From: Naegleria gruberi
Taxonomy: Eukaryota
Length of the DNA: 8,155 bases
Reading direction: 5' to 3' (one strand)
Assembly: GCA_000004985.1 (NCBI GenBank)
Contig: GG739087.1
A model generated the notes under the pieces. The model was not told the DNA's origin, did not search any database, and saw nothing but the letters and a program-made list of their open reading frames with translations. The translations under genes and the position numbers were made by a program. This document shows positions 1-6,941 of this stretch, piece after piece. Every line of letters begins with the position of its first letter. Position 1 is the first letter of the stretch.

Positions 1-362
1 CATCAAAGAAATCTGCAAAAAAACCATTCACAGGAGGAATTAAAAAGCCACACAGATATAGACCAGGTACTGTAGCTTTAAGAGAAATCCGAAAGTATCA
101 AAAAAGCACTGAATTATTGATAAAAAAAAAACCTTTTTGTAGGTTGGTGAGAGAAGTTGCTCAAGATTACAAATCTGATGTTAGATTTCAAGCGAATTCA
201 CTCCTTGCACTTCAAGAAGCAGCTGAGGCATTTATTATTGATATTTTTGAGGATACTAATCTTTGTGCCATTCACTCCAAAAGAGTTACTATTTTGCTCA
301 AAGATATGCAACTTGCATTAAGAGTAAAAGGTGTTAATTATATTGGTTTATTAAATAAATAA
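1..362 (+). CDS. Histone H3 variant, 5'-partial; reading frame starts at nt 3, stop TAA at 360-362
   Basis: Translating from nt 3 gives [119 protein letters not shown]. This aligns along its whole length to the canonical H3 histone fold ([26 protein letters not shown]...PF.RLVRE.AQD.K.D.RFQ...ALQEA.EA....[22 protein letters not shown]). By eye it is about 73% identical to canonical H3 and carries a 9-aa C-terminal extension. The ORF-track entry 117..362 is only the portion after an internal Met. The open frame runs to the window start, so the N-terminal tail lies upstream. Confidence 0.85.
354..359 (+). promoter_or_regulatory. AATAAA polyadenylation-signal-like hexamer overlapping the H3-variant stop codon
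   Basis: The sequence aaATAAAtaa contains AATAAA at 354-359. It sits only about 40 nt upstream of the next gene's ATG. Confidence 0.35.
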
Positions 363-395
363 TATTAATCATCATCATTTAATATCTTTAAAAAA

Positions 396-3293
396 ATGTC
401 TTGTACTTTAGAAGATATTTTTCAAGACACACAATTCAAAAAGTTCAACGATAAAGGAAAACCGTATTGTGAAGGAGTTGTATATTTAAAACAAGAAGAC
501 TTATACAAATTTTTAGGAATAAAAGAAGTTAAAAAGAAAAGGATATTAGAAACATCCGAATTAAATCGATGTAAAAATGTTTGTGGTAGTAATTATATTC
601 CAGAAGACATTTGTTTAAAGTTAATATTAACCCAAAAACAATTCCATGATCAAGTAGTAAAATTTATTTATTCAAAACAACAAGATGAGTCTGATCAACT
701 ATTATCACAATTACAACAACTATTACAAGAACAACAAGAACAACAATTACAACAATTACAACAACAACAAGAACAACAACAACAACAACAATTAGAAGAA
801 ACAAGTAATGAAATTACTATTAGAACACAAATACAACAACAAATAAAACATCATACGGAATTATTAAAATTGCTTCAAGAAGAATTACAACAATGTAGAG
901 TAGAATTAGAAGATGACTGTGACTTTGCAGAAACACAAGAATCCAAGAAAAGAAAAGTAAGTGTTCGAACTTATGATTGCAATATGAAAGATATAGCTTA
1001 TTCGGAAGATAGAACAACTTATACTCCTAAAAAACCATCCAAGGTAAACGAAAAATTAGACAAAATAGAGAATCAATTAGATGAATGCATCAAAAAATAT
1101 GATGAACAATTAAATGTTGATGTCAATTTAGCGCCATTAAATTTGGTGTCTGAATGTGAATGTAGAGGTGTAAAATTACGACATAATTCATGTAAATCTA
1201 GTTCTATTGATAATAGTTTTGAATATTCTGACAGAAAGTTAGAAGATTTCATTCAGATTTTTAAAGAAATAGCTCATACTTGTAATGTTAAATTTTCTCA
1301 TATATTATATCATTTATTTAAACAATATCCATCACACGTACTCGATATAATAGAGAGTATTGCTATAACTAGTAAGCTTAAACCACATAATTTTACTGAG
1401 ACTGAATTTAAGAAATACAAAAACCTAATACAAAAACAAATATCTGAAAGTTTACAATTAAAAGTAAAGGATGAACTTAATATTTCACATGAAGCTTGGA
1501 AAGAGTTAATTTATACACTAAATATTGATCACATTTTAAATCCAAATTTATCAGAAATTACAAAAACAACAAATACTTTAGTTAAAGATTTTTTTAAATT
1601 TAAACAACTGAATAATGGATTCATCGTAAACCTTACATCCATCATAGAAGCAGCCATTAAAGCTCATTTACATACTGTTCACACAAGAAAACAGAATGAT
1701 AAAGTATGTGTAGATAAATTACCAGAAAAAGTAATGATTAAATTGTCAATGGATGGTAGAGAATTTGGAAATTTACGAACAGTTGTAGTTACTTTGAATA
1801 TTTTAAATTTACATTTATTCGGAACACAAGAAAGAGACTGTGTTTTCCCAATTCTAATGTATATAGGTGAAGAGAAAGATATTATTAATTATATAACTGA
1901 AATTGAAAAAGAAGTTATTGAACTTTCTACCAAACATATTACTATCAAAGAAAACGAGCATGATGCTACACTATCACTTGAAAATACAACCCAAACAATT
2001 CCATTAGAATTCTATTGGGTGAGTGATTTAAAATCACTTGAATATTGTTCATTATTGAAAGAACATGCTATGTTTTGTCCTTTCTGCAACATTAAGAAAC
2101 AAAATTCATTGTCTGGGATTTGTTCTGAAAATAGTAGAAATTTACAACACAAAATGGGTGTTAAATCATCCAATATTTTCATATGCATTTTGCATATGGA
2201 TGAACGAATTACTGAATATATTTTGAAAATGACCTTAAAAACTTCGGAACTTGAAAAGCAAATGAAAACCAATATTTGTTCATTGGAAGGTTTTGCTGAT
2301 TTTAATTTTCATTCATCAAGTGTTTTAGTGAAAGATACAATCGAAGAAGAAAATGCTCTCACAGTTAAGGAATATTCATTTATGTTATCTGGCGGGCATT
2401 GTAATAAGCTTTTTGGATCTTTTGATAAAGTTTTTGGATTTTTGAAAGATTCAAACTCAAATATGTATAATATTTGGAAAAAATACAAATCAATTAGACA
2501 GTGGTTGTATTATACAAATGAAGATTTGGAAAAGAAATCATTAAAGGATTGGGAAAATTTTGATTCTGAGTTAAATGAATGGAGATTGCTTTTTGTTCTA
2601 CAAAAAGCTGATAGTGGAAGAATAGGAGATTACATTCATATTGCCACTGCACATCTTTATGACTTGCTTTCAACTTATGGAAGTCTGGTTCCTCTTTCAA
2701 ATCAAGGTGTAGAAAGTTCTCATCAATTAGATTGTTTGATTATGGAAAGAGGGACAAGTAAGGGTAAAATGTCTATTGGTACCAAAAAAGCTCAAGCTGG
2801 CTCCTCAAAACCAAACGTGGAAACTGTATCCAAACCTGCTTCCCATACTCTTGAGTCTAGTGATCTTGATAATGAGCAAGAACATAAGGAATTTAATTAT
2901 GAATCATTTATTAAGAAGACAGAATCTTGTGACTGGAATGATTTATTCCAAGTTTGTCAAATCATGCTGAAGAAACTTAGAAAGTTGTATTTATCTTTTA
3001 CTTGTGAAGAAGTACTATTTGTCCGGTTAGAAAGAAGGACTGGTAAGGTAATAAGAAAAGATTGGACAAGAGACATTTTAACTATGTCTCCCAACTTTAC
3101 TCTGCCTATCCGAAAACCAACCAATGTTCTCATTCAAAAACCAGATAACATTAACACTGAAGTGATATCTCCACAGCTTGCTCCATCCCAAGATGTTCCT
3201 AAAAGAACAGTTGAACTCAAACAATCCCAGGAATATGGATTGGTTGTGAATGGTGATGATGATGGGTTGATGAATGATGATGTCTTCTATTAA
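396..3293 (+). CDS. Large (965 aa) Q-rich, probably nuclear, Cys/His-rich protein of unknown function; possible RNase-H-fold transposase-derived core (hypothesis)
   Basis: A single uninterrupted 2,898-nt ORF with an A-rich pre-ATG context (aaaaaaATG) and a TAA stop. It encodes a poly-Q/coiled-coil tract (aa ~95-170, CAA codons) and an SV40-like basic NLS ESKKRKVSV (aa ~182-190). A small Cys cluster CECRGVKLRHNSC lies at aa 254-266. The central region holds LSMDGREF (D453), EFYWVSDLK (D544), CPFC (C561/C564), ILHMDER (H600) and GVESSHQLDCLIMERG (aa 771-786). The C-terminus is acidic (DDDGLMNDDVFY). No in-frame evidence requires an intron. Confidence 0.8.
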   Translation: MSCTLEDIFQDTQFKKFNDKGKPYCEGVVYLKQEDLYKFLGIKEVKKKRILETSELNRCKNVCGSNYIPEDICLKLILTQKQFHDQVVKFIYSKQQDESDQLLSQLQQLLQEQQEQQLQQLQQQQEQQQQQQLEETSNEITIRTQIQQQIKHHTELLKLLQEELQQCRVELEDDCDFAETQESKKRKVSVRTYDCNMKDIAYSEDRTTYTPKKPSKVNEKLDKIENQLDECIKKYDEQLNVDVNLAPLNLVSECECRGVKLRHNSCKSSSIDNSFEYSDRKLEDFIQIFKEIAHTCNVKFSHILYHLFKQYPSHVLDIIESIAITSKLKPHNFTETEFKKYKNLIQKQISESLQLKVKDELNISHEAWKELIYTLNIDHILNPNLSEITKTTNTLVKDFFKFKQLNNGFIVNLTSIIEAAIKAHLHTVHTRKQNDKVCVDKLPEKVMIKLSMDGREFGNLRTVVVTLNILNLHLFGTQERDCVFPILMYIGEEKDIINYITEIEKEVIELSTKHITIKENEHDATLSLENTTQTIPLEFYWVSDLKSLEYCSLLKEHAMFCPFCNIKKQNSLSGICSENSRNLQHKMGVKSSNIFICILHMDERITEYILKMTLKTSELEKQMKTNICSLEGFADFNFHSSSVLVKDTIEEENALTVKEYSFMLSGGHCNKLFGSFDKVFGFLKDSNSNMYNIWKKYKSIRQWLYYTNEDLEKKSLKDWENFDSELNEWRLLFVLQKADSGRIGDYIHIATAHLYDLLSTYGSLVPLSNQGVESSHQLDCLIMERGTSKGKMSIGTKKAQAGSSKPNVETVSKPASHTLESSDLDNEQEHKEFNYESFIKKTESCDWNDLFQVCQIMLKKLRKLYLSFTCEEVLFVRLERRTGKVIRKDWTRDILTMSPNFTLPIRKPTNVLIQKPDNINTEVISPQLAPSQDVPKRTVELKQSQEYGLVVNGDDDGLMNDDVFY
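711..791 (+). repeat. Imperfect (CAA)n coding trinucleotide repeat giving a poly-Gln/Glu tract
   Basis: Runs such as caacaacaagaacaacaacaacaacaacaa lie inside the 396-3293 ORF. They translate to QQLLQEQQEQQLQQLQQQQEQQQQQQ. Confidence 0.8.
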
Positions 3294-3305
3294 AAATATT
3301 TGATC

Positions 3306-3356
3306 GTCGATTCCCCGTGCCAGTGTTGTGGTAGTCAAAGCGATTCCGGAATCGAC
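3306..3356. repeat. GC-rich inverted repeat / hairpin (9-bp perfect arms GTCGATTCC...GGAATCGAC, 33-nt loop) containing a 14-bp perfect palindrome CGATTCCGGAATCG
   Basis: Read directly: GTCGATTCC at 3306-3314 is the exact reverse complement of GGAATCGAC at 3348-3356. The segment 3341-3354 is CGATTCC|GGAATCG. It begins 13 nt after the stop codon of the 396-3293 gene and is embedded in otherwise very AT-rich DNA. Confidence 0.6.
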
Positions 3357-3368
3357 TTTCAAAAATTC

Positions 3369-3391
3369 AATAAAATGTGCCATCAAATAAA
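3369..3391 (+). promoter_or_regulatory. Two AATAAA polyadenylation-signal-like hexamers (3369-3374 and 3386-3391) downstream of the 396-3293 gene
   Basis: The sequence caATAAAatgtgccatcaaATAAAatttt lies 76-98 nt after the TAA stop and just past the hairpin. Confidence 0.4.
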
Positions 3392-3801
3392 ATTTTATCA
3401 AAGGCCTTTATTGTTAGAAATAATAATTATTATTTAAATATTAAACATTGTTACTTCATATAATCAAATTAAAAGCATGTTAAATGTTTAATATAACAAA
3501 TAATAACTGTAATAATCGGAATTGTAAAATTCTGGAAGATTTTAAACAGTAGTGGTTTTAATTGGTTCAAAAAGTGGCAAAAAAAAATTTGGCGCAAAGA
3601 GCGGTCGACAATTTGTCGAGTCTTGCTGAATGGTTATTTTCAACTCTAGATTTGTAGTGTGGAGAAGCCAACAATTCCTTCTCATTCTTATTTAACAATT
3701 TGTCAATTATTATCCTAAACAGTTTCTAACATTAATTTTCGAGTAACAGTATATGTAAATTACTCCATAACCATGTATTCGACATTGATATTTCATTCTT
3801 T

Positions 3802-3846: not shown

Positions 3847-6441
3847 NNNNNNNNNNNNNNNNNNNNNNNNNNNNNNNNNNNNNNNNNNNNNNNNNNNNNN
3901 NNNNNNNNNNNNNNNNNNNNNNNNNNNNNNNNNNNNNNNNNNNNNNNNNNNNNNNNNNNNNNNNNNNNNNNNNNNNNNNNNNNNNNNNNNNNNNNNNNNN
4001 NNNNNNNNNNNNNNNNNNNNNNNNNNNNNNNNNNNNNNNNNNNNNNNNNNNNNNNNNNNNNNNNNNNNNNNNNNNNNNNNNNNNNNNNNNNNNNNNNNNN
4101 NNNNNNNNNNNNNNNNNNNNNNNNNNNNNNNNNNNNNNNNNNNNNNNNNNNNNNNNNNNNNNNNNNNNNNNNNNNNNNNNNNNNNNNNNNNNNNNNNNNN
4201 NNNNNNNNNNNNNNNNNNNNNNNNNNNNNNNNNNNNNNNNNNNNNNNNNNNNNNNNNNNNNNNNNNNNNNNNNNNNNNNNNNNNNNNNNNNNNNNNNNNN
4301 NNNNNNNNNNNNNNNNNNNNNNNNNNNNNNNNNNNNNNNNNNNNNNNNNNNNNNNNNNNNNNNNNNNNNNNNNNNNNNNNNNNNNNNNNNNNNNNNNNNN
4401 NNNNNNNNNNNNNNNNNNNNNNNNNNNNNNNNNNNNNNNNNNNNNNNNNNNNNNNNNNNNNNNNNNNNNNNNNNNNNNNNNNNNNNNNNNNNNNNNNNNN
4501 NNNNNNNNNNNNNNNNNNNNNNNNNNNNNNNNNNNNNNNNNNNNNNNNNNNNNNNNNNNNNNNNNNNNNNNNNNNNNNNNNNNNNNNNNNNNNNNNNNNN
4601 NNNNNNNNNNNNNNNNNNNNNNNNNNNNNNNNNNNNNNNNNNNNNNNNNNNNNNNNNNNNNNNNNNNNNNNNNNNNNNNNNNNNNNNNNNNNNNNNNNNN
4701 NNNNNNNNNNNNNNNNNNNNNNNNNNNNNNNNNNNNNNNNNNNNNNNNNNNNNNNNNNNNNNNNNNNNNNNNNNNNNNNNNNNNNNNNNNNNNNNNNNNN
4801 NNNNNNNNNNNNNNNNNNNNNNNNNNNNNNNNNNNNNNNNNNNNNNNNNNNNNNNNNNNNNNNNNNNNNNNNNNNNNNNNNNNNNNNNNNNNNNNNNNNN
4901 NNNNNNNNNNNNNNNNNNNNNNNNNNNNNNNNNNNNNNNNNNNNNNNNNNNNNNNNNNNNNNNNNNNNNNNNNNNNNNNNNNNNNNNNNNNNNNNNNNNN
5001 NNNNNNNNNNNNNNNNNNNNNNNNNNNNNNNNNNNNNNNNNNNNNNNNNNNNNNNNNNNNNNNNNNNNNNNNNNNNNNNNNNNNNNNNNNNNNNNNNNNN
5101 NNNNNNNNNNNNNNNNNNNNNNNNNNNNNNNNNNNNNNNNNNNNNNNNNNNNNNNNNNNNNNNNNNNNNNNNNNNNNNNNNNNNNNNNNNNNNNNNNNNN
5201 NNNNNNNNNNNNNNNNNNNNNNNNNNNNNNNNNNNNNNNNNNNNNNNNNNNNNNNNNNNNNNNNNNNNNNNNNNNNNNNNNNNNNNNNNNNNNNNNNNNN
5301 NNNNNNNNNNNNNNNNNNNNNNNNNNNNNNNNNNNNNNNNNNNNNNNNNNNNNNNNNNNNNNNNNNNNNNNNNNNNNNNNNNNNNNNNNNNNNNNNNNNN
5401 NNNNNNNNNNNNNNNNNNNNNNNNNNNNNNNNNNNNNNNNNNNNNNNNNNNNNNNNNNNNNNNNNNNNNNNNNNNNNNNNNNNNNNNNNNNNNNNNNNNN
5501 NNNNNNNNNNNNNNNNNNNNNNNNNNNNNNNNNNNNNNNNNNNNNNNNNNNNNNNNNNNNNNNNNNNNNNNNNNNNNNNNNNNNNNNNNNNNNNNNNNNN
5601 NNNNNNNNNNNNNNNNNNNNNNNNNNNNNNNNNNNNNNNNNNNNNNNNNNNNNNNNNNNNNNNNNNNNNNNNNNNNNNNNNNNNNNNNNNNNNNNNNNNN
5701 NNNNNNNNNNNNNNNNNNNNNNNNNNNNNNNNNNNNNNNNNNNNNNNNNNNNNNNNNNNNNNNNNNNNNNNNNNNNNNNNNNNNNNNNNNNNNNNNNNNN
5801 NNNNNNNNNNNNNNNNNNNNNNNNNNNNNNNNNNNNNNNNNNNNNNNNNNNNNNNNNNNNNNNNNNNNNNNNNNNNNNNNNNNNNNNNNNNNNNNNNNNN
5901 NNNNNNNNNNNNNNNNNNNNNNNNNNNNNNNNNNNNNNNNNNNNNNNNNNNNNNNNNNNNNNNNNNNNNNNNNNNNNNNNNNNNNNNNNNNNNNNNNNNN
6001 NNNNNNNNNNNNNNNNNNNNNNNNNNNNNNNNNNNNNNNNNNNNNNNNNNNNNNNNNNNNNNNNNNNNNNNNNNNNNNNNNNNNNNNNNNNNNNNNNNNN
6101 NNNNNNNNNNNNNNNNNNNNNNNNNNNNNNNNNNNNNNNNNNNNNNNNNNNNNNNNNNNNNNNNNNNNNNNNNNNNNNNNNNNNNNNNNNNNNNNNNNNN
6201 NNNNNNNNNNNNNNNNNNNNNNNNNNNNNNNNNNNNNNNNNNNNNNNNNNNNNNNNNNNNNNNNNNNNNNNNNNNNNNNNNNNNNNNNNNNNNNNNNNNN
6301 NNNNNNNNNNNNNNNNNNNNNNNNNNNNNNNNNNNNNNNNNNNNNNNNNNNNNNNNNNNNNNNNNNNNNNNNNNNNNNNNNNNNNNNNNNNNNNNNNNNN
6401 NNNNNNNNNNNNNNNNNNNNNNNNNNNNNNNNNNNNNNNNN
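3847..6441. other. Assembly gap: 2,595 consecutive N
   Basis: An uninterrupted run of n. All three gap-spanning ORFs in the track (3802..6528-, 3813..6512-, 3831..6491+) are artefacts of translating N as X. Confidence 0.99.
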
Positions 6442-6860: not shown

Positions 6861-6941
6861 GGTGTGTTGACCGAGTGGTTATGGTGCTGGCTTCAGGTGC
6901 CAGTGGGTAAAACCGCGTGGGTTCAAATCCCACACACATCA
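6861..6941 (+). tRNA. tRNA-Leu (anticodon CAG), type II with long variable arm, no intron
   Basis: Hand-folded cloverleaf. The acceptor GGTGTGT (6861-6867) pairs with ACACATC (6934-6940), with one G-U. U8 and G9 are present. The D stem is ACC/GGT with D loop GAGTGGTTAT. The anticodon stem is CTGGC/GCCAG with loop TTCAGGT (U33, anticodon CAG 6894-6896, G37). The 13-nt variable arm TGGGTAAAACCGC has a GGT/ACC stem. The T stem is GTGGG/CCCAC with loop TTCAAAT. The discriminator A73 at 6941 is a Leu identity element. There is an A box (TGACCGAGTGG) and a B box (GGTTCAAATCC). The anticodon and T arms closely resemble eukaryotic tRNA-Leu(CAG), recalled from memory. Confidence 0.85.

Follow-up and report, generated by a model that had tools for sequence, protein, structure and literature searches.

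The window, that is, the whole 8155-bp stretch of DNA analyzed here, is a complete small scaffold of Naegleria gruberi NEG-M (contig GG739087.1) and is AT-rich (GC about 25–36%). A gene for a histone H3 variant lies at its very beginning (3–362, plus strand); the 5′ end of this gene is lost at the scaffold start, and its stop codon, TAA, occupies 360–362. A spacer that reads as 33 nt from stop codon to ATG (363–395, plus strand) separates it from an open reading frame (ORF) of 965 aa in the same orientation (396–3293, plus strand, from the ORF list), the product of which (XP_002668398.1/D2W5J7) is labeled “predicted protein.” The ORF is followed by a right subterminal non-coding region, extending from the stop codon to the terminus (3294–3647, plus strand), and by a right terminal inverted repeat (TIR), CACTACAAATCT, which is read inward from the end on the minus strand (3648–3659). 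The 965-aa protein is very probably the transposase of a DNA transposon of the CMCT (CACTA/Mirage/Chapaev/Transib) clade that carries the adjacent H3 gene as a gene of its own. The window holds the right-hand two thirds of this cut-and-paste transposon, and the left end of the copy lies beyond the scaffold start. The original prediction had tentatively placed an RNase-H-fold transposase core, either Transib/RAG1-like or hAT-like, at 1743–2766 (aa 450–790) and had considered the gene possibly host-domesticated.

The protein begins with a domain of about 95 aa (396–680, plus strand), which is weakly conserved at the N-terminus across the family, has no Pfam match at E ≤ 10, and may bind DNA. A Q-rich, low-complexity, coiled-coil-like linker follows (681–944, plus strand; CAA/CAG-type direct repeats at 706–894), in a region where relatives show no conservation, and then a basic cluster, KKRK (aa 184–187; 945–956, plus strand), which is a putative nuclear localization signal; relatives contain K/R-rich stretches in the equivalent region. 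The remainder is dominated by a predicted RAG1-like catalytic core (aa ~351–791; 1446–2768, plus strand), comprised of an RNase-H fold and an all-helical zinc-binding insertion domain. Within this core, all of the following on the plus strand, the predicted first catalytic Asp, D453, is found in KLSMDGREF (1752–1754), and the predicted second, D544, in YWVSDLKSL (2025–2027), 91 residues later. Two putative zinc ligands, C561-x2-C564 of the FCPFC motif (2076–2087), lie 17 and 20 residues past D544, and are followed by a CILHMDE motif (C597, H600, and E603; 2184–2204), by Y746-x-H748-x4-H753, the putative second half of the zinc site (2631–2654), and by the predicted catalytic Glu, E773, in GVESSH (2712–2714), 229 residues past D544.

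A word-indexed search identified eight relatives, 36–44% identical to the window protein, from Naegleria lovaniensis, from Willaertia magna, and from metagenomes; full-length homologs at this level of identity are present in Heterolobosea. The residues singled out in the original prediction do not vary among these eight. An HMMER profile search of 1.84 billion representatives retrieved 327 proteins at E ≤ 1e-3. In a family alignment of 37 relatives, which are 16–44% identical to the window protein, D544, C561, H600, Y746, H748, H753, and E773 are invariant, and D453, E493, C564, and C597 are conserved in at least 90% of the sequences. Since these residues are conserved across the relatives, the motif pattern is real and strongly constrained, beyond what chance would produce. 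All of the motif positions and spacings on which the original prediction was built, including that of the KKRK cluster, are present in the protein, and its candidate residues are kept in homologs; of its two candidates for the catalytic Glu, E773 is borne out by its invariance, whereas E784 is not among the conserved columns.

Several remote relatives (P0012, P0014, and P0038) have additional domains: some are fused to a Ulp1 protease (Peptidase_C48, down to 7e-16), and a fungal Zn2Cys6 domain (4.4e-10) is fused to a distant family member among them. The names of the clusters that hold the remote relatives are uninformative. Judged from these sequences, the domain fusions and the 327 clusters indicate a much wider, unannotated superfamily.

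Evidence for mobility comes from related loci. Five elements (L001, L002, L003, L004, and L006) are bounded by perfect 12-bp TIRs of the form CAC[T/A]ACAA.... Two of these, L002 and L003 of N. lovaniensis, are 99.98% identical over exactly 5017 bp (8103–13119), from TIR to TIR; the identity breaks off abruptly at both ends, which form the perfect inverted repeat CACAACAATTTA, and the flanking genes are unrelated. The third N. lovaniensis copy, L001, is diverged and 4911 bp long and has the same termini, so that copies are found at three unrelated loci in this species, with entirely different gene neighborhoods outside the TIRs. The termini are CACTACAATTTA in L004, a Willaertia element of 8062 bp, and CACTACAAACCA in L006, an element of 5906 bp from a metagenome. 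The right terminus of the window copy, located 366 bp past the transposase stop codon, fits these family TIRs, and the window contains a single copy of the 9-mer CACTACAAA, oriented as the family termini require, where chance alone would give 0.09. The earlier statement that no TIRs flank the ORF therefore applies to the left side of the window only, where the scaffold starts inside the upstream histone gene and the absence of a TIR cannot be judged from the window alone.

These copies bear directly on the proposal that the 965-aa gene and the H3 variant derive from a domesticated transposase and are now immobile host genes, serving, for example, programmed DNA rearrangement or chromatin specialization. 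Domestication would be expected to entail loss of the TIRs, a single copy, and conserved synteny; instead, relatives with perfect TIRs lie at non-syntenic loci, two of them nearly identical, the gene neighborhoods beyond the TIRs differ completely between copies, and the window itself has the right terminus of the family. It is true that the ORF is intact with all of the predicted catalytic residues present, and that related copies are under strong purifying selection (ω 0.14), but an autonomous element that spreads by transposition should show such selection as well. The proposal also draws on the linkage between the H3 and transposase genes, which is kept across 36–42% protein divergence, on the left TIR not being visible in the window, and on the lack of target-site duplications (TSDs) at any insertion. 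Weighed together, these points make domestication improbable, and a mobile CMCT-clade element that carries the H3 gene is preferred.

Some features of the copies themselves should be recorded here. In L002 and L003, the transposase frame is interrupted at 10702–10781 and is annotated with an intron, and the product is ~37 residues short compared with relatives; these recently duplicated copies may depend on the transposase of another copy. A TIR-like palindrome, CACAACGAAATGTTGTTGTG, is located at 13140–13174 of L003, right past the right end of the element, and may have been left there by a further copy, as a remnant or footprint. The second Willaertia copy, L008, encodes a truncated transposase (440 aa) and has a left terminus, CACTACAAATTA, for which a right partner was not detected (9022–9063); a subterminal motif, CAAATTGCCAAT, is found outside this left terminus, and the ends of L008 may be rearranged or nested.

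The assignment of the core to a RAG1-type fold is supported by structure prediction and profile comparison. An AlphaFold2 (AF2) model built on the 37-sequence alignment has a mean predicted local distance difference test score (pLDDT) of 82.1 and a predicted template modeling score (pTM) of 0.77, with pLDDT >90 across core residues 130–570. In this model, D453 is placed on β1 (strand E225–236 of the model), D544 directly after β4, and E773 on a helix past a helical insertion of ~230 residues, which as modeled is the layout of a classic RNase-H-fold Asp-Asp-Glu (DDE) transposase. In a Foldseek search against the PDB, RAG1 and RAGL entries fill the first 43 places (E 2.5e-11 to 3.7e-8; template modeling (TM) score up to 0.59), followed by Hermes (E about 6e-4, TM about 0.25). 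A first AF2 model, based on seven sequences, was poor (pLDDT 56.5), yet the order of the Foldseek matches was identical. The predicted overall fold is thus of the RAG1 type, including the zinc-clamped insertion domain.

At the sequence level, hhalign aligned the 37-sequence profile with a RAG1 profile at 90.7% probability (E 1.3e-6) over 317 co-linear columns; the RAG1 profile is small and includes a starfish RAG1-like protein. The paired positions comprise D544 with D708, C561 and C564 with C727 and C730, H600 with H795 of the RAG1 ALHCD motif, E493 with E662, H748 and H753 with H937 and H942, and E773 with E962; in each protein, the Glu is found 20 residues past the second His. The mouse RAG1 sequence used for comparison (595–1008) is genuine RAG1, scoring 955 bits against PDB 4wwx, and the spacing from D708 to C727 and C730 that the original prediction had cited is found in it. 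Against a single RAG1 sequence, hhalign gave a local match only; the profile of 7 sequences yielded E 0.032, and that of 37 sequences reached 83%. The RAG1/Transib-like reading of the core is therefore supported at the levels of predicted fold and sequence profile.

By the same comparison, it is very improbable that the L-S-x-D block and the acidic spacing, which had suggested a hAT-like transposase of the Hermes/Ac type, reflect such an enzyme: Hermes trails RAG1 and RAGL in the fold search, and a C-terminal dimerization domain, a BED finger, and 8-bp TSDs, as well as a best fold match to Hermes, were all lacking. Chance resemblance of motifs in a lineage-specific protein unrelated to transposition, for which the first reading from spacing only and the absence of Pfam or PDB sequence matches for the protein alone could be cited, is refuted by the family conservation, the hhalign profile match, and the fold match to RAG1, and is scarcely credible.

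The CMCT clade, which includes RAG1, is defined by a C(2)C plus H(3-4)H arrangement between the second Asp and the Glu, and likewise by CA..TG termini (PMC12730594). The window protein has C561-x2-C564 and H748-x4-H753 in the corresponding interval, together with a predicted RNase-H-fold DDE triad (D544 and E773 invariant, D453 conserved in at least 90%), and the TIRs of the family have 5′-CA...TG-3′ (CAC...GTG) termini. We classify these elements as a divergent heterolobosean family of CMCT-clade transposons. Several features are shared with CMC elements (CACTA/EnSpm, Mirage, and Chapaev), namely CACTA-type termini (CACTACAA), the C(2)C and H(3-4)H pairs between the second Asp and the Glu, a multi-gene organization, and relatives that are fused to Ulp1 or weakly match DUF1280 or Transposase_21. 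In addition, repeats of N. lovaniensis have been labeled CMC-EnSpm by RepeatModeler, as 38 fragments that could not be linked to the copies described here (PMC6125883). On the other hand, the 2–4 bp TSDs of CMC elements were not seen, the window protein has no significant match to Pfam tnp2/Transposase_21, and the accessory genes (ORF1, ORF141, and H3, described below) are unrelated to TnpA. The elements likewise differ from RAG1, ProtoRAG, and Transib, to which the window protein is only 10–14% identical and without a Pfam RAG1-family match; there is no 5-bp TSD, so that neither sequence membership nor the insertion signature places the family within Transib/RAG1 proper. A RAG2-like Kelch partner, as in the RAG1/ProtoRAG systems, is absent, the accessory ORFs having no Pfam matches; the termini (CACTACA/CACAACA) share no more than their first three bases with the heptamer of the recombination signal sequence (CACAGTG); and the host is a heterolobosean amoeba and not an animal. 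In Pfam searches with the 37 relatives, only one matches RAG1 (PF12940, 5.1e-5), one matches Transposase_21/tnp2 of CACTA elements (0.0079), and one matches DUF1280 (1.9e-5); a Ulp1 protease domain is present in two.

A number of points weigh against the interpretation of the locus as a CMCT transposon. The window protein itself has no Pfam match (none at E ≤ 10) and no match among PDB sequences by phmmer or profile hmmsearch. The fold is a prediction and not an experimental structure. The best hhalign alignment leaves D453 unpaired with D600 of RAG1, the strands being shifted by one; an alternative local alignment pairs KLSMDGR with the RAG1 sequence KESCDGM, which contains D600, although this permissive local run provides no reliable global alignment. 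The window lacks the left end, and a complete element is thus not shown for N. gruberi, in which the two records of the H3-plus-ORF pair may be haplotigs. CMCT elements normally make TSDs of 2–5 bp; however, no TSD of 1–10 bp was found at L001, L002, L003, L004, or L006, including the two near-identical copies, with no empty sites for comparison. Finally, the family may belong with either CMC or Transib inside CMCT, as no CMC structure exists for comparison.

The H3 ORF of the window matches the Pfam Histone family (PF00125, E 2.5e-37) and has a histone fold with a conserved αN-to-α3 sequence. It is 99% identical to an N. gruberi “histone H3” of 186 aa (P0191; XP_002671547.1/D2VWB2) encoded on a 297-kb scaffold, where the next accession, XP_002671548.1, belongs to a truncated gene model whose product has the same sequence as aa 587–965 of the window protein; the H3-plus-ORF pair is thus present at least twice in the N. 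gruberi assembly, as separate copies or as haplotigs. The arrangement recurs in relatives. In L006, a 128-aa H3 (PF00125, 7.8e-39) inside the TIRs ends 10 nt ahead of the transposase ATG, and in L001–L003 of N. lovaniensis an unannotated intact H3 ORF was found by tblastn inside the TIRs, 3 nt ahead of the transposase ATG. The spacer is thus 3 nt (N. lovaniensis), 10 nt (L006), or 33 nt (window) in three divergent lineages. The gene order in H3-bearing elements is ORF1 (~220 aa, plus), a 140-aa ORF (ORF141, minus), H3 (plus), and transposase (plus). ORF1 and the transposase are found without H3 in L004 of Willaertia and also in L005, L007, and L009, the last of which was the only locus added by a metagenome scan. 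ORF1 and ORF141 have no Pfam matches, and no homologs of known function were detected for these or for the N-terminal domain of the transposase.

In the fold region, the element-borne H3s are 55–70% identical to one another and 60–78% identical to canonical H3s (75–78% between the window H3 and canonical heterolobosean H3s), whereas canonical heterolobosean H3s are 92–94% identical to one another. The element H3s form one clade apart from host H3 with 92% bootstrap support in a small neighbor-joining tree that is open to long-branch attraction, and they share losses of Q68, S86/87, S96, and P121. Comparison of L001 with L002 gives ratios of non-synonymous to synonymous substitution rates (dN/dS) of 0.16 in the H3 fold, 0.14 in the transposase, 0.23 in ORF1, and 0.09 in ORF141. 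Because the H3 gene lies within the TIRs, belongs to a clade of its own, and is under purifying selection, it is regarded as a maintained cargo gene of the element. The original prediction had noted a histone variant beside the ORF; the adjacency is confirmed, and the gene is element cargo rather than a host neighbor. What is new relative to that prediction is a RAG1-fold transposon with its own H3 variant and no TSD seen. No report of a transposon-encoded histone H3 was found in full-text searches of the literature; Repbase and Dfam lay outside this search, and prior curation of the family is possible.

In the tail of the element H3, 11 non-synonymous changes and 1 synonymous change separate L001 from L002, which suggests, on these sequences, that the tail evolves fast. 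The synonymous rate (dS) between the two copies is uneven, at 0.12–0.17 for H3, 0.39–0.50 for ORF1 and ORF141, and 1.34 for the transposase, and this unevenness suggests recombination between element lineages. In the full-length N. gruberi element H3 (P0191), a T/S/P/K-rich repeat tail of ~85 aa (TPSKT, TPRKT) replaces ARTKQTARKS; the K27 context is lost and GGIKKPHRY is kept, and the protein is annotated simply as “histone H3.” In L006, a perfect 22-nt inverted repeat, CCATTTTTTAGGGTGTCGAATG, is located at 1453–1474 and 1510–1531, directly upstream of the divergent starts of ORF141 and H3, an arrangement suggestive of one bidirectional promoter serving the two genes; the TTTTAGGGTGTCGA motif appears again at 5156–5218 as an inverted pair just past the transposase stop.

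Two further readings of the window H3 gene were set aside. The validated CENP-A1 of N. gruberi is XP_002682707.1 (bioRxiv 10.64898/2026.08.18.745565), and the window H3 was rejected as this protein because the accessions differ (XP_002671547.1 for the element H3) and loop 1 is of canonical length; the window H3 lacks Q68, a trait shared with CenH3s. An 81-nt GT...AG interval at 331–411, which as an intron would join H3 in frame to transposase codon 6, was dropped, since comparable sites are not evident in L006 or N. lovaniensis, and is probably coincidental.

A feasible model for the element may be built on that of RAG1. The RNase-H-fold DDE core (D453, D544, and E773) would hold two catalytic metal ions, as in RAG1, and the Cys2-His2 site (C561, C564, H748, and H753) would bind zinc and clamp the helical insertion domain in the same manner. 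The transposase, in which the N-terminal domain, the Q-rich linker, and the basic cluster with its possible nuclear localization function precede the catalytic core, would recognize the 12-bp CAC[T/A]ACAA... termini, excise the element, and reinsert it elsewhere; the right subterminal region, which contains short inverted repeats at 3295–3314 and 3348–3367, is a putative binding site, and the window copy may itself still be mobile. It is tempting to speculate, with considerable reservation, that this RAG1-fold transposon lineage of Heterolobosea keeps its own H3 variant, with a divergent tail that lacks the canonical K4/K9/K27 context and with Q68 lost, for special nucleosomes, either on its own DNA or at target sites, and integrates without TSD. 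The element H3, which would be expressed from a position directly ahead of the transposase gene, might allow the element to escape host silencing or might guide transposition, and integration without TSD would imply an unusual strand-transfer geometry for a RAG1-like enzyme.

Mobile genetic elements with a core-histone homolog of their own are exemplified by giant viruses, which encode core histones and package their genomes. The element described here differs in being a small (about 5–6 kb) cut-and-paste transposon with a single H3 variant that would need an H4 partner from the host. The closest analog is provided by fungal DNA transposons, several of them CMCT, that carry TET/JBP dioxygenase genes inside their TIRs (PMC12730594). 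Both carry chromatin or epigenetic cargo within TIRs, although the cargo in Heterolobosea is a core histone H3 variant and not an enzyme. A transposon with a selected core-histone variant would represent a new mode of interaction between mobile elements and chromatin, parallel to that of the fungal TET/JBP transposons. Among the loci examined, a gene for a Tet-like 5-methylcytosine dioxygenase is found in L007 (5368–6393, minus strand), in convergent orientation 1.1 kb past the transposase of a relative (P0003), and none is present in the other loci or the window. Its product matches the Naegleria enzyme NgTet1 (PDB 5cg8/4lt5) with E 2.7e-12; this gene adjoining a transposase, which may lie inside that element, parallels the TET-carrying transposons of fungi.

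RAG1, the V(D)J recombinase, is believed to have evolved from transposases of the Transib type, and the structural knowledge of this group comes almost entirely from animal proteins. As predicted here, a protist transposase would be RAG1-like along about 440 residues and in this respect would surpass the insect Transib of solved structure; it would broaden the set of proteins in which the ancestral modules of RAG1 can be sought by comparison. Some of the “histone H3” paralogs of Naegleria would also be transposon genes, which bears on studies of H3 and CENP-A paralogs. The apparent lack of TSDs, should it be borne out, would be an unusual mechanistic trait among DDE transposases of the CMCT clade.

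Finally, some minor features of the sequences are noted. In L007, which is a Logan contig, the apparent inverted repeat formed by 1–22 (CTACACGACGCTCTTCCGATCT) and 6373–6394 (AGATCGGAAGAGCGTCGTGTAG) is an Illumina adapter, a contamination and not a biological inverted repeat. In the window, an assembly gap of 2595 N (3847–6441) starts 188 bp past the putative right end of the element, and ORFs called across this N run are spurious. A gene for tRNA-Leu(CAG) of 81 nt is located ~400 bp past the gap, at 6861–6941 on the plus strand.

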